Source of the DNA: Candidatus Omnitrophota bacterium | GTDB taxonomy: Bacteria > Omnitrophota > Gorgyraeia > Gygaellales > JAQTUX01 | Length of the DNA stretch: 64,000 nt | Assembly (NCBI GenBank): GCA_028707125.1 | Contig: JAQTUX010000001.1 | Location: forward strand, 977,493 to 1,041,492 | Direction: 5' to 3' | Part shown: positions 26,810 to 61,945 of the stretch, piece after piece | Layout: the number at the start of each line of letters is the position of its first letter | Numbering within the stretch: position 1 is the first letter of the stretch | Position numbers and translations under genes: made by a program | The notes under the pieces: generated by a model | Database searches by the model: none | Told to the model about the DNA's origin: nothing | The model's input: the letters and a program-made list of their open reading frames with translations, nothing else

Positions 26810-28714
26810 ATGAACAAAGATACTTATACGATCACATTTTTTCATCCCGGCGCCACGAAGATAGAGGTGCATAAAGGCAGGGATATTTTATCTGCCGCGC
26901 TGGCAGCGGGCATATACATTAACTCAAGCTGCGCCGGAGACGGCGTATGCGGCCGCTGCAAGGTGATCATTAAAAAAGGCGAAATAACCACGGAGCCGTC
27001 CGGACGCGTCTCCATGGAAGAGAGGCATAAAGGATATGTGCTTGCCTGTCAGACAACCGTGCATAGCGACGTAGAAGTAGAAGTGCCTGCCGGATCAATG
27101 CTGGACCTGGACAGCGTTTCTGAAGAAGACGAAAGATTCTTGCGCCTGAAAGGGCTGTACAGCCAGGCAGAGGATGTGGATAAGGCGGAAGGCGTGATCA
27201 AGGAGAAACTATTCGCGCATAGCCCGCTGGCAACCAAGGTTTATCTTAAGATGCCCGCGCCGACGTTTAATGACACGGCCAGCGATTTAGAGAGATTATA
27301 CAGAGAACTCAGAAAAAAGAAAGACATACCTGTATTACAGAGCGGCCTGACCAACATTAAGCGCCTGGGTATGCTGTTAAGGGAGAGCGGCTTTAAGGTT
27401 ACAGCGCTTTTAGGGGAGAGGAACGGGACCGTAGAGGTCATTTCTCTGGAGTCAGGCGATACGTCCAGGGATAATTACGGCGTTGCCTTTGATATCGGCA
27501 CTACCACTATTACCGGCCAGCTGGTGGATCTTAATACCAGGAAAATATTGGGCACAAAGGGGACCTACAATAAACAGGCCGCTTTCGGCAGCGATGTCAT
27601 TACGCGCATTATTTACGCGGCAGAGGAAGGCGGACTGGAAAAGCTGCATCACGCGGTGATCGATAATATCAATTCCATAATCCAGGAATTGGTAAAAGAA
27701 GGCGGCGTTGAGTTGAGCGATGTAAATGCCGTGATGTGCGCGGGCAATACCACTATGATACATCTGCTCCTGCGGGTCGATCCCGCGTTTATCAGGAAGG
27801 AGCCCTATGTCGCCACTGCCAATTTTATGCCGGTGATCAGGGCGGCAGAGGCAGGGATAAAGATAAATCCCAGGGGCCTGCTTGCCTCTATGCCCGGGGT
27901 AACTACGTATGTGGGCGGCGATATAACAGCCGGCGTGCTGGCAAGCGGGATCAACAGGTCCGACAAACTAAGTATGCTGATAGATATAGGCACAAACGGC
28001 GAGATAGCCCTGGGGAATAAGGACTGGCTGGTTTCTTGCGCCGCTTCCGCCGGCCCGGCCTTTGAGGGCAGCGGAGTCAAGTACGGCATGAGAGCGGCCA
28101 AAGGCGCGATCCAACGAGTGGATATATCGGCATCGGGAAAGGCCAGGGTTGAAACCATAGGGAATGCCAGGCCCAGAGGCATATGCGGTTCGGGTTATAT
28201 TGACTGCCTGGCGGAATTGTTTAAGAAGGGCCTGATAGACAAAAACGGCAAATTCCGCGATGACAGTGAGGAATTTATCCTGGTTCCCCGGAAGGAAGCC
28301 GATACGGAATACGATATCACAATTACGGAAGCGGACATTGAGAATCTCAAGCGTTCCAAAGGGGCGATCTACGCCGCGGCAACGGTATTGCTGAAGAAAA
28401 TGGACCTGGATTTCAACGATATTGAACGCTTTTATATCGCCGGAGGTTTCGGCACATATCTGGATATAGATAAGGCCGTGGCGATCGGCATGCTTCCCGA
28501 TTTAAATAGAAAGAAATTTTCATTCATAGGCAATAGTTCTCTCGTAGGCGCGCGGGAGGGGCTGCTTTCTTACGAAGCTAAAACAGAGGCGGAAGAGATC
28601 GCGAGGAAAATGACCTATATTGAATTAAGCATAGAGCCGGCATATATGGATGAATATGTGGCGGCTTTGTTCTTTCCGCATACGGACTTGAACAGGTTCC
28701 CCAGCGTAAAGTAA
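26810..28714 (+). CDS. Reductive activator of CoFeSP (RACo): [2Fe-2S] ferredoxin plus ASKHA ATPase
   Basis: N-terminal plant-type ferredoxin (SSCAGDGVCGRCKV...LACQT), a linker, and a C-terminal ASKHA domain (FDIGTTTITGQLVD...); about 630 aa, matching RACo architecture. Confidence 0.75.
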   Translation: MNKDTYTITFFHPGATKIEVHKGRDILSAALAAGIYINSSCAGDGVCGRCKVIIKKGEITTEPSGRVSMEERHKGYVLACQTTVHSDVEVEVPAGSMLDLDSVSEEDERFLRLKGLYSQAEDVDKAEGVIKEKLFAHSPLATKVYLKMPAPTFNDTASDLERLYRELRKKKDIPVLQSGLTNIKRLGMLLRESGFKVTALLGERNGTVEVISLESGDTSRDNYGVAFDIGTTTITGQLVDLNTRKILGTKGTYNKQAAFGSDVITRIIYAAEEGGLEKLHHAVIDNINSIIQELVKEGGVELSDVNAVMCAGNTTMIHLLLRVDPAFIRKEPYVATANFMPVIRAAEAGIKINPRGLLASMPGVTTYVGGDITAGVLASGINRSDKLSMLIDIGTNGEIALGNKDWLVSCAASAGPAFEGSGVKYGMRAAKGAIQRVDISASGKARVETIGNARPRGICGSGYIDCLAELFKKGLIDKNGKFRDDSEEFILVPRKEADTEYDITITEADIENLKRSKGAIYAAATVLLKKMDLDFNDIERFYIAGGFGTYLDIDKAVAIGMLPDLNRKKFSFIGNSSLVGAREGLLSYEAKTEAEEIARKMTYIELSIEPAYMDEYVAALFFPHTDLNRFPSVK

Positions 28715-48035: not shown

Positions 48036-48287
48036 ATGTCGCTAATGATAAGATTGAGAAGGATAGCCGATACTAAGGGCGCGCATTGTTTCAGGGTAGT
48101 TGCCATAGCAAAGGAGCGCTCCAGGGACGGCAGGAACATTGAGGAATTGGGATTTTACGACCCCAGAAGCAATCCTCCCGTTATAAAGATCAACAGGGAG
48201 AGGATAGAGCACTGGATAAAGAACGGAGCCCAGTTAAGCAACACAGTCAAGGACCTTATGAAAAAGACGAAAAAAGGGGGTAAATAA
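48036..48287 (+). CDS. rpsP: 30S ribosomal protein S16
   Basis: MIRLRRIADTKGAHCFRVVAIAKERSRDGRNIEELGFYDP is S16; RBS AAGGAG. Confidence 0.85.
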   Translation: MSLMIRLRRIADTKGAHCFRVVAIAKERSRDGRNIEELGFYDPRSNPPVIKINRERIEHWIKNGAQLSNTVKDLMKKTKKGGK

Positions 48288-48562
48288 TGCAGCCGGCAGC
48301 CCAGTCAGCAGGATTGATCAATTTCATACCTTTAATTTTGATATTTCTGGTTTTCTATTTTCTGCTTATCAAGCCGCAGAAACAAAAGGAAAAGGAACAC
48401 CAGAAGATGATACACGGCCTGGAAAGGAATAACGAGGTGGTCACGACAGGCGGTGTTCACGGGACCATAGTCGGCGTCAAAGAGAAAACATTCATACTCA
48501 GGGTGGATGAAAACGTAAAGATCGAAATAGAAAAATCGGCTGTGGCATCCCTGTTGAAATAA
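48287..48562 (+). CDS. yajC: Preprotein translocase subunit YajC
   Basis: Single TM then ...GGVHGTIVGVKEKTFILRVDENVKIEIEKSAV, the YajC family, in the expected position before secDF. Confidence 0.8.
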   Translation: MQPAAQSAGLINFIPLILIFLVFYFLLIKPQKQKEKEHQKMIHGLERNNEVVTTGGVHGTIVGVKEKTFILRVDENVKIEIEKSAVASLLK

Positions 48563-48579: not shown

Positions 48580-50787
48580 ATGAAAAATAAACTTTTATTC
48601 AGAAGCGTACTGATAATCGCGGTCCTGATCATCTCGCTGTATTATACATTCCCGCTTGGCAAAAGGATCAATCTCGGCCTTGACTTAAAGGGCGGGATGC
48701 ACCTTGTCCTGCAGGTCGATACGTCAAAGTTAAGCGATAAGGAGAAATATGACGCGGTTGACCGCGCCATTGAGGTAGTCAGGAACAGGATAGACCAATT
48801 CGGCGTGAGCGAACCGGTTATCCAGCGGCAGGGAGAAAACGGCATCGTAGTCCAGCTTCCCGGCGTAACAGACAGGAAAAGAGCCATAGATCTGATCGGT
48901 AAGACGGCCCTGCTTGAGTTTAAGCTCGTATCGCAGGATCCCGAGGCGCTGAAGCAGGCGGTAGAAGGCAATGTAGCTCCGGAATATGAACTGAAATACA
49001 TCAAGGAAGATTCGCGATCAGAACCGCTTTTACTGCATAAGGAGGCGGTCATTATGGGAGATGCCTTGACAACGGCATCGGCGGCATTTGATTCCAGCCG
49101 TTTTGGCGAGCCCATAGTCAGGATCGCCTTTAATCCCGAAGGGGCAAAGAAATTCGCCCAGATCACAAAGGACAACGTAGGCAGGCAGCTGGCAATAGTG
49201 CTTGACGGCAATGTCCAGTCGGCGCCGCGCATAAACGAACCTATCCCCTCCGGCGAGGCGGTCATAAGCGGCAGATTTAACGTTGAAAAGGCGCAGGACC
49301 TGGCAATAGTGCTTCGCGTCGGCGCCTTGCCCGCGCCGATGCGTATAGAGGAAGAGCGCACCATAGGGCCGCTTCTGGGGCAGGATTCCGTCAAGAGCGG
49401 AATAAAGGCGAGCGCGATAGGCGGATCCATTGTGCTCGCGTTTATGATAGTATATTATTTGCTCTCCGGCCTGGTTGCTTCCATTGCCTTGATCTTCAAT
49501 CTTTTTATCATACTCGGCACGCTTGGCCTGCTTCCTGTCATCTTGAGCAATTTCTCAGCCACGCTTACGCTTCCCGGCATAGCCGGTATAGTACTCACCC
49601 TGGGTATGGCGGTAGATGCTAATGTGCTTATAAATGAAAGAATAAGAGAGGAATTGAGGTCGGGCAAATCCCTGAGGTCATCCATATCCTCCGGGTATGG
49701 CAAGGCATTCAGCGCTATTCTTGATTCCAATATAACCACGCTGATAGCGGCATTCTTTCTATTCCAGTTCGGCACAGGCCCTATAAGAGGATTCGCGGTA
49801 ACGCTTACCATAGGCCTTATGGCAAGCATGTTTACCGCTATAGTGGTGACCAGGCACATCTTTGAACTGCTGCTTTTAAGCCCGAAATTCACATCCTTGC
49901 GCATGCTTAACTTCGCCAGAGACACAAAGATCGATTTTATCGCGAAGCGAAAGATTTGCTACGTTGTCTCCGCCATAGTAATAACCGCGGGACTGGTCAG
50001 CTTCGCGATAAAGGGCAAGGACGCCTACGGAATAGATTTTTCAGAGGGCCAGATCCAGGAATACGCCTTCAAAGAGCCGATAGCGATGGAGGACTTGAGG
50101 TCCGCCCTGATATCTTCGGGGCTGCAGGACGCGTCTATCCAGAAATTCAAAGATAACCCCAAAGTGGTTATGATACGCACAAAAACAGACACCTCCGAAG
50201 CCGTATCAGAAATATTCGGCAGGAAATTCCCCGCGAACACTTTTGAGATCATGCGCATTGAAAATGTCGGCCCTTCCGTGGGAAAACAGCTGAGAGGCAG
50301 GGCGATCTGGGCGATACTATGGGCTATGGCCGGCATACTGGTTTATGTAGGCATCAGGTTCAAGCATTTTGACTTTGCGATCGCGGGAGTCATCGCCTTG
50401 CTCCACGATGTCTTTGTCGCCATGGGCGTTCTCCTGCTTACCGGCAGGCAGATAGACCTTTTGATCGTCACGGCCCTGCTTACCATTGCCGGTTATTCCA
50501 TAAATGATACGATAGTGATCTACGACAGGGTCAGGGAAAACGCGCGCATGTTGCGCAAATACACGCTTCGCGATCTGATAAACTTAAGCGTCAACCAGAC
50601 GATGAGCCGTACCATACTTACTTCGCTGCTGACCTTATTCGTTGTCCTGGCGCTGTTTCTCTACGGCGGGGAGGTCCTGCACAGCTTTTCCTTTGTCTTG
50701 ATCGTCGGCTTTATATCGGGGGTATATTCTACGGTTTTTATCGCGTCGGCGCTTGTGCTTGCCTGGAACAGAAGAAAGACCCTTTGA
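48580..50787 (+). CDS. secDF: Fused protein translocase subunit SecDF
   Basis: 735 aa with 12 TM segments, a periplasmic P1 domain, and SecD and SecF RND-like halves in one ORF. Confidence 0.9.
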   Translation: MKNKLLFRSVLIIAVLIISLYYTFPLGKRINLGLDLKGGMHLVLQVDTSKLSDKEKYDAVDRAIEVVRNRIDQFGVSEPVIQRQGENGIVVQLPGVTDRKRAIDLIGKTALLEFKLVSQDPEALKQAVEGNVAPEYELKYIKEDSRSEPLLLHKEAVIMGDALTTASAAFDSSRFGEPIVRIAFNPEGAKKFAQITKDNVGRQLAIVLDGNVQSAPRINEPIPSGEAVISGRFNVEKAQDLAIVLRVGALPAPMRIEEERTIGPLLGQDSVKSGIKASAIGGSIVLAFMIVYYLLSGLVASIALIFNLFIILGTLGLLPVILSNFSATLTLPGIAGIVLTLGMAVDANVLINERIREELRSGKSLRSSISSGYGKAFSAILDSNITTLIAAFFLFQFGTGPIRGFAVTLTIGLMASMFTAIVVTRHIFELLLLSPKFTSLRMLNFARDTKIDFIAKRKICYVVSAIVITAGLVSFAIKGKDAYGIDFSEGQIQEYAFKEPIAMEDLRSALISSGLQDASIQKFKDNPKVVMIRTKTDTSEAVSEIFGRKFPANTFEIMRIENVGPSVGKQLRGRAIWAILWAMAGILVYVGIRFKHFDFAIAGVIALLHDVFVAMGVLLLTGRQIDLLIVTALLTIAGYSINDTIVIYDRVRENARMLRKYTLRDLINLSVNQTMSRTILTSLLTLFVVLALFLYGGEVLHSFSFVLIVGFISGVYSTVFIASALVLAWNRRKTL

Positions 50788-50799
50788 TACCCACCCGTT

Positions 50800-52686
50800 A
50801 TGTTCAAATCTCTCAAGTTCCACAAAGGCCAGGAGATTGAAACTCAGGCGATCTCAGGGCAGCTGGTTGATTTCGGGTATAAGCGCCGGCAGTCCGTAGA
50901 TGAAGAAGGCGACTTCTCCATACGCGGCCACATCATAGACCTGTTCCCCATTACATTTGAACTGCCCGTAAGGATCGAGCTGGAGATAAATACGATCAGC
51001 AAGATCTATACTTACGCCGTATCAACCGGAGAGAATATATATGAACACGATATCATAGTAGTCCTTCCCCGTAAATCAGAACGCAAAGCCAACATAAACA
51101 TATTCAGCGAAGATTTTCCTTCTTCTAATTTCGTAGATCTAAGCGTGGGGGATTACGCCGTCCACGTGAGGCACGGCATCGGTATATTCAAAGGCAAAGA
51201 AAAGATCAAGGCCGCGGAAGGGCGCGAGGAACACCTGGTGATAGAATATGAAAATAAAGAGCGCTTGTTTGTCCCCATGCAGGAAGCGCACCTTGTGCAG
51301 AAATACCTTGCCTTCGGTTCAAGAAGGCCCAGGTTAAACCGGCTCGGCTCAAAGGAATGGCTCAGGATCAAACAAAGGGCCGGCAAAGGCATACAGAAAT
51401 ACGCGCTGGACCTGCTTCATCTTGAGTCCATGAGGCAGCTGCTTAAGGGATTTAAGTTCTCGCGAGATACCGACTGGCAGGAACGGTTTGAGAAGACATT
51501 CCCTTTTGAAGATACGCCTGACCAGATAACCGCGGCTGCCGAGACAAAGAAAGATATGGAGTCGGAGAAGCCGATGGACCGGCTCATATGCGGAGAGGTC
51601 GGCTATGGCAAAACAGAAGTGGCGATGCGCGCCGCCTTCAAGGCGGTTATGGACAATAAGCAGGTGGCGATGCTTGTGCCTACGACCATACTTGCCGAAC
51701 AGCACTATTATAACTTCTGCTCACGCCTCAAAGAATTCCCCATAAGAGTTGAGATGCTCAGCCGCTTTAAGACCGGCTCCCAGCAGCGCGGCATAACAGA
51801 GGGCCTGAAAGACGGCTCTGTTGATATAGTGGTAGGAACGCACCGGCTCCTGGGAGACGATATACATTTCAGGGATTTGGGGCTGGTCATAATTGATGAA
51901 GAACAGCGTTTTGGCGTAAAGGCAAAAGAAAAGCTTAAGACATTGCGCCTTTCGGTAGATGTGTTGACCCTTACGGCAACTCCCATACCGCGCACGCTTT
52001 ATATGAGCCTTATGGGGGCCAAGGATATGTCACAGGTTAATACCCCGCCAAAAAACCGTATCCCTGTGGCGACATATGTGGTAGAATATGATGAAAATCT
52101 GATAAGACAGGCGGTATTGAGGGAGAAAAAACGCAAAGGCCAGGCCTATTTTGTGCATAATCAGGTCTATGACATAGAGCGCACCTTGGAGAGAATAAAG
52201 GCAATACTACCCGGCAGCATAAAGGCTGCTTATGCTCACGGCCAGATGCCCCCGAAAATACTTGAAAAGGTAATGCTTGATTTCATAAAAGGCGGTATAG
52301 ACGTGCTCGTATGCACCTCTATTATTGAATCGGGCATTGATATCCCCAACGTAAACACTATAATTATAGACAATGCCGAGGCGTTCGGACTGGCAGACCT
52401 GCATCAGCTTCGCGGCAGGGTAGGCAGGTTTAACAGGCGCGCCTACGCTTACCTTCTGGTCTCCAGGGCGGCGTCTTTAAGCGGCGAGTCAAAAAAGCGC
52501 CTCGCGGCGATAGAACAATATTCTCATCTCGGTTCAGGGTTCAGCATCGCCATGGAAGACCTTGAGATCAGGGGCGCGGGCAATATCCTGGGCACCGAGC
52601 AGCATGGTTTTATAATGGCGGTCGGCTTTGACCTTTATTGCCGCCTGTTAAGGCAGGCAGTCGCGAATTATAAGCAGATAACGTAA
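50800..52686 (+). CDS. mfd: Mfd-like transcription-repair coupling helicase, short form (D3-D6 only; lacks the UvrB-homology N-terminus and the D7 C-terminus)
   Basis: GDFSIRGHIIDLFP...VRIELEINTI (D3-like); GDYAVHVRHGIGIF (RNAP-interacting D4, cf. E. coli GDYVVHLEHGVGRY); DRLICGEVGYGKTEVA (Walker A); DEEQRFGV; QLRGRVGR. It ends ~20 aa after motif VI, and secDF abuts upstream, leaving no room for D1-D2. Confidence 0.7.
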   Translation: MFKSLKFHKGQEIETQAISGQLVDFGYKRRQSVDEEGDFSIRGHIIDLFPITFELPVRIELEINTISKIYTYAVSTGENIYEHDIIVVLPRKSERKANINIFSEDFPSSNFVDLSVGDYAVHVRHGIGIFKGKEKIKAAEGREEHLVIEYENKERLFVPMQEAHLVQKYLAFGSRRPRLNRLGSKEWLRIKQRAGKGIQKYALDLLHLESMRQLLKGFKFSRDTDWQERFEKTFPFEDTPDQITAAAETKKDMESEKPMDRLICGEVGYGKTEVAMRAAFKAVMDNKQVAMLVPTTILAEQHYYNFCSRLKEFPIRVEMLSRFKTGSQQRGITEGLKDGSVDIVVGTHRLLGDDIHFRDLGLVIIDEEQRFGVKAKEKLKTLRLSVDVLTLTATPIPRTLYMSLMGAKDMSQVNTPPKNRIPVATYVVEYDENLIRQAVLREKKRKGQAYFVHNQVYDIERTLERIKAILPGSIKAAYAHGQMPPKILEKVMLDFIKGGIDVLVCTSIIESGIDIPNVNTIIIDNAEAFGLADLHQLRGRVGRFNRRAYAYLLVSRAASLSGESKKRLAAIEQYSHLGSGFSIAMEDLEIRGAGNILGTEQHGFIMAVGFDLYCRLLRQAVANYKQIT

Positions 52687-52705
52687 AATTAAACACATTG
52701 TCATA

Positions 52706-53602
52706 ATGTATAACAAAACTGTATTTCTAATCTTAAGTTTTATCTTACTGACCTCTCCCGTATTCGCTGAGAGGATAGTGGCTATCGTAAACGATGATAT
52801 CGTGACCGAGTCGGAATTAGAGGGCTTCATTCAATTTACTGAGCTTGAATTGTCCTCGCGCTATGAGGGAAAAGGCCTGGAGGAACAAATGGCGCTTGTG
52901 CGCAAGGACGCGCTCAATACGATAATTGAGAACAAGCTCATACTCCAGCAGGCAAAGAAAGAAGGCGCCCAGGTTACAAAGCGCGCGCTTGACAAACGCG
53001 TGGAAGAGATAAAAAAGAGGTATCCGTCTGAAGAGCTCTTCAGGATGTATCTGATCCAGCGCGGGCTGACGCAGTCGGATATTGAAGAGAGGATAACGGC
53101 TCAGATGCTTATAAAGGGCTTTATGGAAATGAAATTTGAGTCAAACGTGCACGTTTCTCCCGCGGAGATAACGCGTTATTATAAAGAGCACGGCGATGAA
53201 ATAAAGAAGCCGCAAATGAGAAAGGTCTCGGCGCTGGCCATCAAAGACAAAGACGCGCTTTACGGCGCCCTTAACAGGATAAGAACAGGCGGCGGCTTTA
53301 AAGAGGCTGCCGATGGCGAAACGGCAAGCTTTATAGATATGGGTATTGTGAGCGAAAAAACGTTAAGAAAAGAATTCGACGAGCTGGTTTTCAGGCCCGC
53401 CTCACCGGGTATTACCGATCATATTGAAGTCGACGGCGTATATTACGTATTCAAAATAGATGAGATCATGCCTGAAGAGCGGCTGGCCCTGGATGAGGCG
53501 CAGCCGCAGATAAAGGCGATCATTTCGTATAACAAGGTCACCAATAAGATCAAATCCTGGTTGAAAGAAGTCAAGGAAAGATCGTATATCGCGATCAAAT
53601 GA
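52706..53602 (+). CDS. surA: SurA-like periplasmic chaperone (SurA N-domain plus a degenerate parvulin-like domain)
   Basis: Signal peptide MYNKTVFLILSFILLTSPVFA, a SurA_N-type helical domain and a C-terminal rotamase-like region; the classic mfd/surA-pdxA-ksgA neighbourhood. Confidence 0.7.
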   Translation: MYNKTVFLILSFILLTSPVFAERIVAIVNDDIVTESELEGFIQFTELELSSRYEGKGLEEQMALVRKDALNTIIENKLILQQAKKEGAQVTKRALDKRVEEIKKRYPSEELFRMYLIQRGLTQSDIEERITAQMLIKGFMEMKFESNVHVSPAEITRYYKEHGDEIKKPQMRKVSALAIKDKDALYGALNRIRTGGGFKEAADGETASFIDMGIVSEKTLRKEFDELVFRPASPGITDHIEVDGVYYVFKIDEIMPEERLALDEAQPQIKAIISYNKVTNKIKSWLKEVKERSYIAIK

Positions 53603-53614
53603 GGAGGTGAGAGA

Positions 53615-53773
53615 ATGAGCTGGAAATTATTCTGGCAGATAGTGTTGTTGATAGTGATAGCGGCGGTAGTCGCGTCTGCTGCCAAGGTCGGTATGCTGCG
53701 CTGCAAGTATATGGGCGGGTCTATGCAAATGAAGATGATGCAGGGCGGGCGCCATATGATGCCGCCTAAATAG
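53615..53773 (+). CDS. Small 52-aa membrane protein with a Met-rich C-terminus
   Basis: Strong RBS GAGGAGGTGAGAG; MSWKLFWQIVLLIVIAAVVASAAKVGMLRCKYMGGSMQMKMMQGGRHMMPPK; fills the surA-pdxA gap exactly. Confidence 0.4.
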   Translation: MSWKLFWQIVLLIVIAAVVASAAKVGMLRCKYMGGSMQMKMMQGGRHMMPPK

Positions 53774-53775
53774 AC

Positions 53776-54735
53776 ATGAGGATCAAAGTCGGTATCACGA
53801 TCGGTGATCCTTCGGGTATAGGGCCCGAAGTAACGGTAAAGGCGTTGTCATCTTCTTCAATAGATAACTCCGCTGATTTTACGATCATAGGAGACAAACA
53901 CGCCTTTACGCGCGCGGCAGGAAGGTCAACGCTCATAGAGCGCGGCAACGTTGATTTTATTGATTTAAGGAACCTGAACCGGAAAAATTTCGCTTTCGGC
54001 AAGGTGAGCGCGGAATACGGCCGCGCCTCAGTTGAGTATATCAATACCGCCGCGGATCTCATAAAAGCGGGCGCTATTGACTGCCTTGTAACCGCTCCTG
54101 TCAGCAAGGAAACTATTAACAAAGCAGGTTATAGATTCCAGGGCCACACAGAATACCTCGCGGGGCTTTTTGGGGTGAAAAAATTTCTTATGATGCTTAC
54201 CGCGGGGCCTCTACGCATAGGCCTGGTAAGCCGTCATATCCCCCTAAAGCAGGTAGCGCATAAGATCAGCAGGCAAGATGTAATAGATACAATCCTGTTT
54301 ACCCACCGGGCGCTTAAGCAACTGTTCGGTATTAAGAGTCCTGCAATCTTTGTCTGCGGCCTTAACCCGCACGCCTCTGACGCCGGCCTCATCGGCAAAG
54401 AAGAAATTACCGTTATAGAGCCGGCGGTAAAAGCCGCGTCAAAAATGGCAAAAGGCCTGAAAGGCCCGCTTCCGGCTGACAGCGCCGTGCTTCTGGCAAG
54501 CAGGACAAAGGGAAGCGGCCTGGTGGCGATGTATCACGACCAGGCATTGATACCGCTTAAGCTTATAGGCGAGAATAAAGGCGTTAATCTGACCGTGGGC
54601 CTGCCTTTTGTCAGGACGTCTCCGCTTCACGGCACCGGCTTTGATATCGCGGGAAAAAACAGGGCCGATGCCTCCTCAATGATCGAAGCCGTAAAAACCG
54701 CCATCAAATGCGCGCGTATCCTAAAAAGAGGTTAG
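53776..54735 (+). CDS. pdxA: 4-hydroxythreonine-4-phosphate dehydrogenase
   Basis: MRIKVGITIGDPSGIGPEV..., plus HTEYLAG and the HDQAL/H-x-GT metal ligands. Confidence 0.9.
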   Translation: MRIKVGITIGDPSGIGPEVTVKALSSSSIDNSADFTIIGDKHAFTRAAGRSTLIERGNVDFIDLRNLNRKNFAFGKVSAEYGRASVEYINTAADLIKAGAIDCLVTAPVSKETINKAGYRFQGHTEYLAGLFGVKKFLMMLTAGPLRIGLVSRHIPLKQVAHKISRQDVIDTILFTHRALKQLFGIKSPAIFVCGLNPHASDAGLIGKEEITVIEPAVKAASKMAKGLKGPLPADSAVLLASRTKGSGLVAMYHDQALIPLKLIGENKGVNLTVGLPFVRTSPLHGTGFDIAGKNRADASSMIEAVKTAIKCARILKRG

Positions 54736-55520
54736 GCCAGAATTTCCTGGTTGAGAAGAATATCAGGAAAAAGATACTGGATATCTGTTCTTTTAAGCAG
54801 GGCGATACCGTATTGGAGATCGGCGCGGGCAGGGGAGAGATGACCTGTCTGATCGCGCCGCTGGTAAAACGGCTGATCGCCGTAGAGTTTGACAGAGATC
54901 TATGCGAAGGCCTGAAACCACGGCTGAAAGAATTCGGCAATGTTGAATTGATATGCGGCGATATCTTAAAAGTAAATATCGCCGGCCTGGGTAAGGGTAA
55001 ACGCATAAAAGTATTCGGCAACATACCCTATTATCTCACCACCCCCATCATAATCCACCTTGTCAAACACAAGAAGCATATCAGTAATGTCTATTTGACC
55101 GTGCAAAAGGAATTCGCGCGGCGCATAGTCGCAAAACCCGGCTCAAAAGATTACAGCTCATTCAGTATTTACTGCGGTTATTACCTGATGCCGCGTCTTG
55201 ACTTTGTTATCTCCAGGGGGTGTTTCTACCCTGTCCCTAAAGTAGATTCGGCGTTTTTGAATATTGAAGTAAGGAGAAGGCCTCCTTGCATAGCCGGCAA
55301 TGAGGAGTTTTTCTTTAAAATTGTCAGAGCCGCCTTTAACCAGCGCAGGAAAACCCTGAAAAACTCCCTCAAGAAGATCATCGATCCCGTGGAACTATCT
55401 TCAATTCTGGCAAAACGCGGCCTGAGGCCGGATATAAGAGCCGAGAAGTTAAGCATAGACGATTTCGCCTATATAAGCAGGAAATTTTTGACCCAGAAAA
55501 AAGATATACGAATATGTTGA
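54708..55520 (+). CDS. rsmA: 16S rRNA (adenine1518/1519-N6)-dimethyltransferase RsmA/KsgA
   Basis: KKRLGQNFLVEKNI....VLEIGAGRGEMT...NIPY are KsgA motifs. Confidence 0.9.
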   Translation: MRAYPKKRLGQNFLVEKNIRKKILDICSFKQGDTVLEIGAGRGEMTCLIAPLVKRLIAVEFDRDLCEGLKPRLKEFGNVELICGDILKVNIAGLGKGKRIKVFGNIPYYLTTPIIIHLVKHKKHISNVYLTVQKEFARRIVAKPGSKDYSSFSIYCGYYLMPRLDFVISRGCFYPVPKVDSAFLNIEVRRRPPCIAGNEEFFFKIVRAAFNQRRKTLKNSLKKIIDPVELSSILAKRGLRPDIRAEKLSIDDFAYISRKFLTQKKDIRIC

Positions 55521-58504: not shown

Positions 58505-61500
58505 ATGCCTCATTCCGATTTTGTCCATCTGCACGTCCACACTCAGTATTCTCTCCTTGACGGCGCCTGCCGTATACCCGAACTGATAAATACAGCCGTA
58601 CACCACAAGATGCCTGCCCTGGCAATTACAGACCATGGCAACATGTTCGGGGCCATTGAATTTTATCTTGAATGCCAGAAACAGGGGATAAAACCCATTA
58701 TCGGCTGCGAGGCATACATAGCTCCCGTAAGCCGCCTTAATAAAGAGCCGTCCGGAATACAAGAGGCCGCTAACCATTTTATACTGCTGGCAAAAGACGA
58801 AGAGGGCTACAGGAACCTCTGTAAACTTGTTTCCATCGGATACATTGAAGGCTTCTATTACCGCCCGCGGATAGACAAGGAAGTGCTGGCGCGATACTCA
58901 AAAGGCCTGATAGGGCTTTCCGCCTGCCTTAAAGGGGAAATACCCTGCCTCATACAGGAAAACCGGTATAATGACGCCTTAAAGGCGGCTGACGATTTCC
59001 TCAATATTATGGGTAAGGGCAACTTTTTCCTTGAGATCCAGGAGAACGGCATCCCCGAACAAAAAAAGGTCAATGAGCACCTGTTAAAGATAGCCAGGGA
59101 ATTATCAATAGGCGTAGCCGCCACAAACGACCTGCATTACCTCAAAAGGGAGGACTCCGCGGCGCATGAGGCGCTGCTCTGTATCCAGACCCAGAACACG
59201 CTTGCCGACCCCGGCCATATGAAATTCCAGACAGACGAGTTTTATTTCAAGACCCCTGATGAGATGAAAAAGATGTTCGGGGATACGCCTGAGGCGATAA
59301 AAAATACTCTCCTGATCGCGGAGTTATGCAATCTGGAAATGGACTTTTCCAAGATACACCTTCCATCTTATCATCCTCCCGACGGCAAGAACTGCCAGGA
59401 ATTTTTGAGGCGCCTGTGCGATGAAGGCCTGCGCAGAAGGTTCAAAGAAGTATCCGCGCGTATAAGCCAACGGCTGAAACAGGAACTCACCATAATAGAA
59501 AAGATGGGCTTTGACAGCTACTTTCTTATTGTCTGGGATTTCATAGACTATGCCAGGAAACAAGGCATACCGGTAGGGCCGGGCAGAGGTTCTGCCGCCG
59601 GAAGCCTGGTCAGTTACCTGCTAGGTATTACCGACATAGACCCGCTGCAATACAACCTGATCTTTGAAAGATTCCTTAATCCTGAAAGGATGGGCCTGCC
59701 TGACATAGACATTGATTTCTGTTACGAAAGAAGGCAGGAGGTCATTGATTATGTGGCGCAGAAATACGGCAAGGATAACGTCGCCCAGATCATAACCTTC
59801 GGGACCATGCAGGCGCGCGCCGTGGTCAGGGACGTAGGCAGGGTGATGAGCATACCTTATGCCGATGTTGACAGGATCGCCAAGCTGATACCTTATGACT
59901 CAGTCACTTCTTTAAGGGGCGCGGTGGAACAGGAGCCGGAACTGAATAAGATGTACAAGACCGACCAGCAGATCGAGCAGCTTATGAGCACCGCCTTTTC
60001 TCTGGAGGGCATGACGCGGCATGCCTCCATACATGCCGCCGGCGTAGTGATCACGGATAAACCCCTCACTGATTACCTGCCCTTGTTCAAGACCGGAGAC
60101 GACCAGATCACCACGCAATACAGCATGGGCATATTGGAAAAGATAGGCCTGCTCAAAATGGACTTTCTGGGCCTGCGGACGCTGACGGTAATAGACCAGG
60201 CCGTCAAGATAATCAAGAGGACAAAGGGCGTGGATATAAATATTGAGGAGCTGCCGTTTGACGATAAAAATACCTTCCGGCTGCTGGCCTCCGCCCATAC
60301 AGGCGGCATATTTCAAATAGAAAGTTCGGGCATGCGCGACCTCTTGAAGAAATTGATCCCCGAACGCTTTGAGGACCTGATCGCCCTGCTTGCTTTATAC
60401 AGGCCCGGCCCCATCGGCTCAGGCATGCTTGATGACTTTATCCAGAGGAAGCACGGCAGAGTAGCCATAAGGTATGACCATAAGAGCATGGAGCCGATAC
60501 TGGCTGAGACATACGGGATCATTGTCTATCAGGAACAGGTAATGCAGATAGCCTCTTCACTGGCGGGTTTCACGATGACGCAGGCGGATATGCTGCGCCG
60601 CGCCATAGCGAAGAAGATACCGGAAGTCATGGAAGAGCAGCGCAAGATATTTATCGACGGCTGCCTGAAAAAGAACATCAAGAGGGGGCTGGCGGAAAAG
60701 ATATTTGATCTGATTGAGTACTTTTCGGGGTACGGCTTCAACAAATCACATTCAGCGGCGTACGCGATGATCTCCTATCGCACCGCCTACCTCAAGGCCA
60801 ATTACCCCGTTGAGTTCATGTCCGCGCTTCTTACCTCAGAATGCGATAATACGGATAAGATAGTGGAATACGTGAACGAAGCTGAAAGGATGGGGATAAA
60901 GGTCCTGCCGCCGGACATAAACGAGAGTTTTATGAACTTCGCGGTAATAGACGATAATACCATAAGGTTCGGGCTCAAGGCGGTCAAGAATGTGGGCGCC
61001 GGCGCCATTGAATCCATCGTCAGATCGCGCGGCGAAAAGGGCGCGTTCAAATCTCTGGACGATTTCTGCCAGCGCGTTGACCTGCGCCTGGTGAACAAAA
61101 AGGTGACGGAAAGCTTGATCAAATGCGGGGCGTTTGATTCATTCAAGCTCTACCGCGCGCAGATGATGGCCGCGCTTTCTTACTGTCTTGATTCGGCCTC
61201 AAGACTGCAAAGAGAGCGTTCCAGCGGCCAGTTGTCCTTCTTTGGCGACGGCCCGGGAAATAATCCGGCATTCAACACAAAGGGCACGGACATCCCGGAT
61301 ATAAAGGAGTGGCCTGAGCCGCAGCTGCTCGCCTTTGAAAAAGAGATGCTGGGATTTTATATAAGCGGCCATCCGCTTGCCGGATACGCGAAGACCCTCA
61401 AGCGCTTCGTGTCCTGCCATACGGGAAACATTACATCGCAGTCAGACGGGCAGACGGTAAAACTGCTCGGCCTTATCGCCAAGATCAAACAGACGCTTAC

Positions 61501-61945
61501 ACGGGCCAAACAGGAAAAAATGGCTATATTGAAGTTAGAGGACCTGGAGGGTTCGGTTGAAGTGCTGGTATTTCCTCAGACCTTTCAACAGTACTGGCGC
61601 AACCTTCAGCCGAATAACGTCGTGCTGGTGAAAGGGCGGTTAGTCCTCAAAGAAGAAACGCCCAAGATAATCGCCAGCGAAATACAACCCATTGAACATA
61701 TCTACAATTCAATAAGTTCCGTAAATATAGACCTGACCGGCTTAAAGGAGAATGTCCTTAAGAGCCTCAAAGAACGCCTGGCCTCTTCTCCCGGCAAGGT
61801 ACCGGTCCTGCTTCATTTAAATAACGGAGGCAGGCAGAACGTCCAGATCATGGTAGGACAGGGTTTCTTCATTACTCCCACACCCGAACTTATCCGCGAC
61901 TTTGAAGAGCTTATCGGAGAAAAAAAATTTTCCTTTATAGTCTAG
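58505..61945 (+). CDS. dnaE: DNA polymerase III alpha subunit
   Basis: 1146 aa; PHP domain HLHVHTQYSLLDGA, the pol III core (GRGSAAGSLVSYLLGITDIDP), and an OB-fold C-terminus. Confidence 0.95.
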   Translation: MPHSDFVHLHVHTQYSLLDGACRIPELINTAVHHKMPALAITDHGNMFGAIEFYLECQKQGIKPIIGCEAYIAPVSRLNKEPSGIQEAANHFILLAKDEEGYRNLCKLVSIGYIEGFYYRPRIDKEVLARYSKGLIGLSACLKGEIPCLIQENRYNDALKAADDFLNIMGKGNFFLEIQENGIPEQKKVNEHLLKIARELSIGVAATNDLHYLKREDSAAHEALLCIQTQNTLADPGHMKFQTDEFYFKTPDEMKKMFGDTPEAIKNTLLIAELCNLEMDFSKIHLPSYHPPDGKNCQEFLRRLCDEGLRRRFKEVSARISQRLKQELTIIEKMGFDSYFLIVWDFIDYARKQGIPVGPGRGSAAGSLVSYLLGITDIDPLQYNLIFERFLNPERMGLPDIDIDFCYERRQEVIDYVAQKYGKDNVAQIITFGTMQARAVVRDVGRVMSIPYADVDRIAKLIPYDSVTSLRGAVEQEPELNKMYKTDQQIEQLMSTAFSLEGMTRHASIHAAGVVITDKPLTDYLPLFKTGDDQITTQYSMGILEKIGLLKMDFLGLRTLTVIDQAVKIIKRTKGVDINIEELPFDDKNTFRLLASAHTGGIFQIESSGMRDLLKKLIPERFEDLIALLALYRPGPIGSGMLDDFIQRKHGRVAIRYDHKSMEPILAETYGIIVYQEQVMQIASSLAGFTMTQADMLRRAIAKKIPEVMEEQRKIFIDGCLKKNIKRGLAEKIFDLIEYFSGYGFNKSHSAAYAMISYRTAYLKANYPVEFMSALLTSECDNTDKIVEYVNEAERMGIKVLPPDINESFMNFAVIDDNTIRFGLKAVKNVGAGAIESIVRSRGEKGAFKSLDDFCQRVDLRLVNKKVTESLIKCGAFDSFKLYRAQMMAALSYCLDSASRLQRERSSGQLSFFGDGPGNNPAFNTKGTDIPDIKEWPEPQLLAFEKEMLGFYISGHPLAGYAKTLKRFVSCHTGNITSQSDGQTVKLLGLIAKIKQTLTRAKQEKMAILKLEDLEGSVEVLVFPQTFQQYWRNLQPNNVVLVKGRLVLKEETPKIIASEIQPIEHIYNSISSVNIDLTGLKENVLKSLKERLASSPGKVPVLLHLNNGGRQNVQIMVGQGFFITPTPELIRDFEELIGEKKFSFIV

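Follow-up and report, generated by a model that had tools for sequence, protein, structure and literature searches.

A short form of the transcription-repair coupling factor Mfd in the Omnitrophota, with domain 2 kept and domain 7 absent

Introduction

Mfd, the transcription-repair coupling factor, is commonly presented as a highly conserved protein of eight domains, and its regulation is explained by a clamp between domains D2 and D7 that covers the UvrA-binding surface and keeps the motor in check. The Omnitrophota are ultra-small, possibly host-dependent bacteria. In a stretch of 64,000 nucleotides from a Candidatus Omnitrophota bacterium (assembly GCA_028707125.1, contig JAQTUX010000001.1, positions 977,493 to 1,041,492 of the forward strand; hereafter the window, whose numbering is used throughout), the mfd open reading frame (ORF) at 50800-52686 on the forward strand is intact and uninterrupted, yet encodes 628 amino acids, 55% of the length of the E. 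coli protein. An identical protein (P0001) is on deposit from a metagenome-assembled genome (MAG) titled ‘Candidatus Omnitrophica bacterium’, under the name transcription-repair coupling factor. The locus raises the question of which parts of Mfd this protein does without, and whether what is left can still hand lesions over to nucleotide excision repair (NER).

An earlier reading of this DNA (the original prediction) held that the ORF begins in D3-equivalent sequence and ends about 20 residues after helicase motif VI, so that the UvrA-recruiting module and D7 would have been lost together, leaving a translocase that displaces RNA polymerase (RNAP) with no hand-off to NER. The ORF listing bore out the coordinates, strand and length, and the five quoted motifs were all found; both ends of the protein were placed wrongly, and with them the fate of the UvrA-recruiting domain. 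We conclude that the gene probably encodes a minimal, constitutively derepressed transcription-repair coupling factor that works without the D2:D7 autoinhibitory clamp.

Domain architecture of the short form

The protein consists of D2, a flexible linker, the RNA-polymerase-interacting domain (RID), a relay helix, the two translocase domains and a C-terminal segment with the TRG motif and hook helices. The gene and its parts are laid out as follows (window positions).

50800-52686, forward strand: complete short-form mfd, 628 amino acids, ATG start and TAA stop, from the ORF listing
50800-51075, forward strand: D2, the UvrB-homology and UvrA-binding domain, residues 1-92 (Pfam UvrB_inter PF17757 at residues 5-92, E 5.2e-18)
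51076-51138, forward strand: flexible D2-to-RID linker, residues 93-113, in place of D1b and D3
51139-51309, forward strand: D4, the RID, residues 114-170 (Pfam CarD_TRCF_RID PF02559, E 1.6e-15)
51310-51441, forward strand: connector and relay helix, residues 171-214, with one long predicted helix at 185-214
51442-52029, forward strand: TD1 (D5), residues 215-410 (Pfam DEAD PF00270 at residues 241-400, E 8e-24), with Walker A and DEEQ
52030-52479, forward strand: TD2 (D6), residues 411-560 (Pfam Helicase_C PF00271 at residues 437-545, E 4e-22), with motif VI
52480-52683, forward strand: TRG motif and hook helices, residues 561-628, with R567, R591 and Q601 and predicted helices

The N-terminus is assigned to D2 because the Pfam match and the alignments to Mfd, to UvrB (residues ∼162-246) and to the crystal chain of Mfd D2 on its own (4dfc_A) all agree. 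Against solved structures, residues 5-103 align with E. coli Mfd 128-228 and residues 100-622 with 463-984; BLASTP against E. coli Mfd gave nearly the same two blocks, placing residues 4-106 on 127-231 (30% identity) and residues 80-625 on 444-987 (46% identity). Residues 5-92 are thus D2 and not D3-equivalent sequence, and it follows that the motif GDFSIRGHIIDLFP (residues 37-50), which had been quoted for the D3-like start, lies in D2 and holds the equivalent of E. coli R165. The remaining motifs stand where the original prediction had them, in an RNAP-interacting D4 and a full superfamily 2 (SF2) translocase: GDYAVHVRHGIGIF at residues 117-130, GYGKTEVA at 268-275, DEEQ at 366-369 and QLRGRVGR at 536-543. 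The RID aligns with E. coli Mfd 477-545 and with the crystal chains 6yhz_A and 3mlq_E, and its I136 is the equivalent of E. coli L499. In D2, R42, R58 and E60 correspond to E. coli R165, R181 and D183, and at the C-terminal end R567, R591 and Q601 correspond to R929, R953 and Q963 of the TRG motif.

The tail after motif VI measures 85 residues rather than about 20, and carries the TRG motif and the hook helices; residue 625 aligns with E. coli 987, so that the protein ends at about E. coli residue 990. With the start in D2 and this later end, the loss includes an internal deletion of D1b and D3 and is not confined to the two ends. Relative to canonical Mfd, the alignments indicate three deletions: N-terminal D1a, internal D1b+D3 and C-terminal D7. 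The Pfam scan of the 628-residue protein did not find the TRCF domain (D7, PF03461). When 40 short forms were aligned with 16 full-length Mfds, the fraction of each E. coli domain's columns that the short forms fill was 0.00 for D1a, 1.00 for D2, 0.04 for D1b, 0.04 for D3, 0.99 for D4, 1.00 for the relay helix (E. coli 548-573), D5 and D6, and 0.00 for D7. The predicted absence of D7 and of D1a was therefore upheld; of the three domains D1a, D2 and D1b said to be missing together, the first and last are indeed absent, whereas D2 is present. To judge from these alignments, the losses that pair up are those of the scaffold (D1a/D1b/D3) and the autoinhibitor (D7), not those of the UvrA binder and its mask.

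An AlphaFold2 model built on 60 relatives (mean pLDDT 79.4) gave a folded D2 at pLDDT 70-89 and a disordered stretch at residues 93-112 (pLDDT <50), followed by the RID, a 30-residue relay helix (185-214), two RecA-like domains and C-terminal helices at 562-573, 580-591, 599-608 and 610-627. Across the 40 genomes the linker is 19-44 amino acids long and is the least conserved segment.

Assignment to the Mfd family

The unusual length of the protein, and that only, would speak for an artefact or for decay, that is, for what is left of a full-length mfd after truncation, frameshift or mis-assembly, or for a RecG-type helicase. Scored against family models, the protein reached 860.1 bits with the NCBIfam mfd equivalog TIGR00580 (cutoff 800), its main stretch falling on model positions 290-821 of 907, and stayed far below every RecG cutoff (367 bits against 659 for TIGR00643; 395 against 718 for the best RecG model); the RecG models aligned only with the motor, at residues ∼210-605. 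The enterobacterial-type full-length equivalog NF007966 / PRK10689 gave 620.9 bits, below its cutoff of 1329, and the UvrB model gave 60 bits (cutoff 743), with only UvrB ∼155-245 aligned. Foldseek against the PDB put Mfd on top (6ac8, E 3.7e-60; 2eyq, E 7e-58), ahead of RecG (E 3.4e-26). By these cutoffs, the Pfam matches to RID and UvrB_inter and the Foldseek ranking, both a RecG and an N-terminus of the RecG wedge type, which the original prediction had named as an alternative, are rejected; the N-terminus matches the D2 of UvrB and Mfd instead.

RecG and the short form have in common an SF2 double-stranded DNA translocase with a TRG motif, but the short form is without the wedge domain, possesses D2 and the RID (which is absent from RecG), and scores only about half of the RecG family cutoffs. 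The first 92 residues of the short form are a homologue of UvrB domain 2 (PF17757; PDB 3FPN, 3UWX); a full UvrB helicase can be rejected, since the helicase domains 1a, 1b and 3 and the beta-hairpin of UvrB are missing, and D2 is here fused to an Mfd motor. The 628-residue protein is an Mfd homologue, and its gene is most likely the ordinary mfd of an Omnitrophota bacterium, present in a single copy. The protein does not contain a complete UvrB-homology module (D1a-D2-D1b) or D7, both features of canonical Mfd, and is best seen as an architectural variant of Mfd that extends across the phylum, being neither an ordinary member of the family nor the founder of a new one. Our literature searches found no mention of a short Mfd form, and databases name it just ‘transcription-repair coupling factor’.

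Distribution of the short form

The short form is fixed throughout the lineage. The 120 closest protein clusters (63-76% identity) are all 610-648 amino acids long and share the Pfam set, none of them with PF03461, and where a source name is given it is always Omnitrophica or Omnitrophota. In a survey of loci (contigs, one genome per species; labelled L below), the complete Omnitrophota-type ORFs were without exception 620-662 amino acids (40/40); the non-Omnitrophota ORFs that are complete within their locus were 1073-1221 amino acids (Bacillota, Chloroflexota, Verrucomicrobiota, Aerophobetes, Nitrospirota and others). The short forms start four to five residues ahead of one D2 position (four in the window ORF) with a nearly invariant N-terminus, MFKSLK, and their tails past the hook helices are 5-26 residues long. 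The upstream neighbour of mfd differs between loci, with secDF in that position only in the window, L001 and L042, so the 5′ boundary is no accident of one arrangement.

The same start and the same end in 40 independent assemblies and 120 protein clusters, a whole-gene dN/dS of ∼0.05 and flanking genes that abut at 12 and 19 nt all argue against an artefact or a decaying gene. This explanation, which we regard as extremely unlikely, is already refuted by the comparative data, and the short form is a coherent, non-random, lineage-wide form and not a truncation or an assembly artefact, in line with the original view that it is no random truncation.

A distance-method tree of the RID-to-D6 core places the short forms in one clade (42/42, no intruders) with modest bootstrap support (12/20), and the nearest full-length relative is from candidate division NPL-UPA2. 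Among the non-Omnitrophota loci, the closest Mfd core is that of L075, which is full-length, D7-bearing and high-GC. Only two of the best 150 representatives of a 50%-identity library are short (640 and 642 amino acids). Two candidates for a short form outside the Omnitrophota were rejected: P0181 (769 amino acids) comes from a 2.3-kb contig and is incomplete, and P0253 (975 amino acids, Verrucomicrobiota) still has a C-terminal extension.

The short mfd and the same synteny also occur in MAGs titled ‘uncultured Planctomycetia’ or ‘Planctomycetales’ (L007, L011, L014, L026, L031, L032, L042, L048), and these record titles probably do not match the true phylum of the MAGs. One MAG, JAKLQT01 (bin S2.42), has two contigs (L013 and L027) with short-form mfd genes of 622 and 620 amino acids and the same downstream synteny; the second copy could be a paralogue or reflect strain mixture or bin contamination.

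Search for the missing domains

Could the missing domains be encoded elsewhere? If D7 or the D1a/D1b scaffold were made as separate polypeptides and reassembled in trans, the gene would be split rather than minimal. Next to the gene there is little room for them, and the tight flanks noted in the original prediction were recovered:

48580-50787, forward strand: fused secDF, 735 amino acids (Pfam SecD_SecF_C, SecDF_P1_head and SecD_1st), TGA stop
52706-53602, forward strand: surA-like periplasmic chaperone/peptidyl-prolyl isomerase gene (Pfam SurA_N and Rotamase_2)

The secDF stop is separated from the mfd ATG by 12 nt (TACCCACCCGTT), which leaves no space for an upstream D1a, and the start codon of the surA-like gene follows 19 nt after the mfd stop, which leaves no space for a downstream D7.

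tblastn with 48 segments (D1a, D1b+D3 and D7) from 16 full-length Mfds found no credible match in the window and 440 kb of Omnitrophota DNA from 42 loci; the matches were scattered and inconsistent, and the best had E = 0.007. Remnants of D1a, D1b/D3 or D7 that are frameshifted or lie next to the gene, of which the original prediction had named an upstream D1-D2 segment as the sign of an assembly or sequencing error, are rejected on this ground, since only scattered matches with E of at least 0.007 were obtained. An extra gene does stand between mfd and surA in L004, L006, L007, L010, L030, L054, L076 and probably L008, where the mfd-surA gap has the same size as in L007. As a detached D7 these inserted genes (eight loci) are rejected, since they encode PrsA/PpiC-like lipoproteins of 281-315 amino acids, located as follows:

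L004, 7976-8833: PrsA/PpiC-like lipoprotein gene
L006, 3150-4007: PrsA/PpiC-like lipoprotein gene
L007, 7967-8812: PrsA/PpiC-like lipoprotein gene
L010, 7982-8929: PrsA/PpiC-like lipoprotein gene
L030, 7927-8832: PrsA/PpiC-like lipoprotein gene
L054, 8314-9231: PrsA/PpiC-like lipoprotein gene
L076, 8083-8982: PrsA/PpiC-like lipoprotein gene

In the part of an Omnitrophota survey table considered here, the mfd orthology (KO) was counted once in each of two genomes (PMC10066038), which also speaks against a split. In favour of one, the coverage is 64 kb of this genome and ∼10 kb around each relative’s gene, and fragments that are distant or highly diverged could escape tblastn. We consider a split gene very unlikely.

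Conservation of D2 and its probable binding of UvrA

Every retained module is under purifying selection. Median dN/dS (Nei-Gojobori, at most 20 informative pairs) was 0.07 for D2, 0.06 for the RID, 0.04 for TD1, 0.05 for TD2 with the TRG motif and 0.18 for the linker. Within D2, 15 positions of the 60-sequence family alignment are invariant and 24 nearly so. The motor has kept its catalytic and TRG residues, with Walker A K271, DEEQ E367, R567, R591 and Q601 invariant in 40/40 genomes. For the UvrA contacts (residue list from Manelyte 2010), the equivalent of R165 is arginine in 36/40 genomes, that of R181 arginine in 39/40, and that of D183 glutamate in 38/40. In E. coli, R165 and R181 are part of the D2:D7 interface and, with F185, are needed for UvrA binding and transcription-coupled repair (TCR) (PMC3025350). 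With D7 gone, the equivalents of R165, R181 and D183 have no partner within the protein, and the plainest explanation left for the retention of R42 and R58 is UvrA. D2 of the short form has thus most likely been kept by purifying selection for UvrA binding, as far as these substitution patterns tell, which runs counter to the claim that the UvrA-recruiting module, and with it the hand-off to NER, had been lost.

The loss of NER hand-off nevertheless has to be weighed as an explanation in its own right: the protein might be an RNAP-displacing or anti-backtracking translocase whose D2 serves as a structural or DNA-contacting appendage, or has been re-used for another partner. The drift of the F185 equivalent and the missing D1a and D1b keep it in play. 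The following observations weigh in this direction, against a working coupling factor. The F185 equivalent (position 62, window 50983-50985) varies between D, E, S, V, G and others and is phenylalanine, the only aromatic seen there, in 2/40 short forms, whereas the column is F or W in 14/16 full-length Mfds. Six of the 40 genomes have a substitution among the positions of R42, R58 and E60. D1a and D1b, which in UvrB suffice together with D2 to regulate UvrA (PMC3025350), are gone, and many documented roles of Mfd are repair-independent (PMC13453472). The presence of uvrABC is drawn from two genomes of the survey table, taken as Omnitrophota without recourse to their phylum rows, and not from this MAG; RNAP displacement, UvrA binding and derepression are all read from E. 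coli and Thermus biochemistry, as is the behaviour of the Omnitrophota protein as a whole; and the 64 kb searched belong to a contig of ∼1.26 Mb, in a genome that may carry a second mfd or a stand-alone D7 elsewhere. To our knowledge, work in E. coli has only deleted or point-mutated the whole UvrB-homology module, so that the sufficiency of D2 alone for TCR is an assumption. As to the individual substitutions, R42 is replaced by leucine in L010, L022 and L054 and by histidine in L076, and L020 combines R58K with E60V.

On the other side, of the N-terminal 450 residues of Mfd it is D2 alone, the UvrA-contacting part, that has been kept, and its constraint is as strong as that of the RID (dN/dS 0.07 against 0.06). 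The two arginines that contact both D7 and UvrA in E. coli are nearly invariant despite the loss of D7. Finally, uvrA, uvrB and uvrC each stand in one copy beside the single mfd in the two genomes considered from the survey’s KO table (PMC10066038, supplement 6). A translocase uncoupled from NER therefore seems unlikely to us, if worth keeping in mind, and UvrA recruitment by the retained D2 remains the preferred explanation.

Queries with E. coli UvrA and UvrB against the fetched loci gave matches in non-Omnitrophota loci only, where uvrA (L045 7756-10452, L052 11372-14203, L075 3765-6593) or uvrB (L053 8056-10032) lies a few kb downstream of a full-length mfd; no linkage of uvrA or uvrB to mfd was seen in any Omnitrophota locus.

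Proposed mechanism and comparison with known Mfd proteins

In this lineage, mfd would have been pared down to four modules: D2, a disordered tether of 19-44 amino acids, the RID and a RecG-like double-stranded DNA translocase. The RID would dock on a stalled elongation complex at the beta protrusion of RNA polymerase, while the motor would bind the upstream duplex DNA, drive the polymerase forward and dislodge it. The relay and hook helices, being retained, should still permit wrapping and translocation; the relay helix forms the topological wrap around DNA (PMC7864632). The tethered D2 would then recruit UvrA2(B) to the exposed lesion. Because D7 and the D1-D3 half of the clamp are both absent, the D2:D7 clamp cannot form. 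The prediction is an ATPase/translocase in a constitutively derepressed state and a D2 whose UvrA-binding face is never masked by protein, though DNA might still occlude it during loading. The protein would in effect be a natural Mfd-deltaD7 that is also without the non-contact parts of the UvrB-homology module.

Canonical E. coli Mfd (1148 amino acids; PDB 2EYQ, 6X26) has D2, RID, relay helix, TD1/TD2, TRG motif and hook helices in common with the short form. It differs in having D1a (1-126), D1b+D3 (∼232-443) and D7 (∼990-1148), in its D2:D7 clamp, which is impossible in the short form, and in F185, the equivalent of which is not conserved here. The nearest engineered counterpart is E. coli Mfd-deltaD7 (residues 1-997), truncated ∼7-10 residues from where the short form ends naturally, and likewise with D2 unmasked. 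Mfd-deltaD7 shows elevated ATPase, translocation without RNAP and constitutive UvrA binding, and is TCR-competent in vitro and in vivo (PMC1874598, PMC3025350). Derepression of ATPase and translocase, constitutive UvrA binding and TCR competence are likewise found in the D7-AAA mutants (Smith 2007; Manelyte 2010). Compared with these constructs, the natural protein is additionally without D1a, D1b and D3. Thermus thermophilus Mfd (978 amino acids; PDB 6M6A, 13JQ) is likewise naturally shorter, and is naturally constitutively derepressed with a mobile UvrB-homology module, so that autoinhibition is not universal; it retains D1a, D2, D1b and D7, however, whereas the Omnitrophota form has no D1a, D1b or D7 (PMC13453472). 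The behaviour of E. coli deltaD7 and the naturally derepressed Thermus Mfd together make a derepressed minimal factor the most likely reading of the Omnitrophota protein.

With D7 absent and the F185 position drifting, it is also conceivable that D2 is no longer a regulated, late-exposed landing pad for UvrA, and instead holds a standing Mfd-UvrA patrol complex or has been re-targeted to another partner; we think this quite unlikely. A standing complex, if it exists, would patrol DNA and RNA polymerase together and couple repair without kinetic gating, and a re-targeted D2 would give an RNAP-remodelling motor that serves a new client. Each of the two roles would amount to a mechanistically distinct transcription-coupled surveillance across a whole phylum.

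For the minimal coupling factor that we prefer, a whole phylum with only D2, RID and motor amounts to an experiment made by nature. From it, neither the scaffold domains nor the autoinhibitor would seem to be needed in vivo, and D2, RID and translocase would seem to form the selectable core, a view that agrees with the behaviour of E. coli deltaD7 and with the 2026 Thermus result of no autoinhibition. The short form bears directly on whether Mfd autoinhibition is universal. Possible benefits of gating by D7 and D1-D3, where it occurs, are the avoidance of UvrA sequestration and the kinetic discrimination of paused from stalled polymerases. A coupling factor of 628 amino acids would also suit structural and single-molecule work.

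Genomic context

Downstream of the gene, the order mfd-surA-pdxA-rsmA (ksgA) is kept in ∼35 Omnitrophota loci (window 50800-55520; L001-L035, L042, L054, L071, L076), with surA-pdxA-ksgA in the same order as in E. coli. Upstream of secDF lie yajC (48287-48562) and rpsP (48036-48287), and among the fetched relatives the trpE-rpsP-secDF-mfd arrangement is found only in L001 and L042. The spacer before the mfd ATG (50788-50799, TACCCACCCGTT) has no recognisable Shine-Dalgarno sequence, and translation of mfd may be coupled to that of secDF or use a mechanism independent of such a sequence.

The genes across the window are co-oriented housekeeping genes, among them those for GroEL, LepA, FtsH, AlaRS, the his and trp pathways, GuaB, GuaA, DnaE and HisRS. 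All real-looking ORFs of more than 150 amino acids between 1 and 64000 are on the forward strand and all 2-kb bins have a positive GC skew, which suggests that the window is a long, strictly co-oriented leading-strand segment. The ORF at 58505-61945, with 1146 amino acids of the size of E. coli Mfd, was rejected as a full-length mfd, since it encodes DnaE. At 26810-28714 the window holds a gene for a RACo-type reductive activator of corrinoid proteins (Fer2, RACo linker, middle and C-terminal domains), a hint that the organism may use corrinoid-dependent methyl transfer or a metabolism of the Wood-Ljungdahl type.

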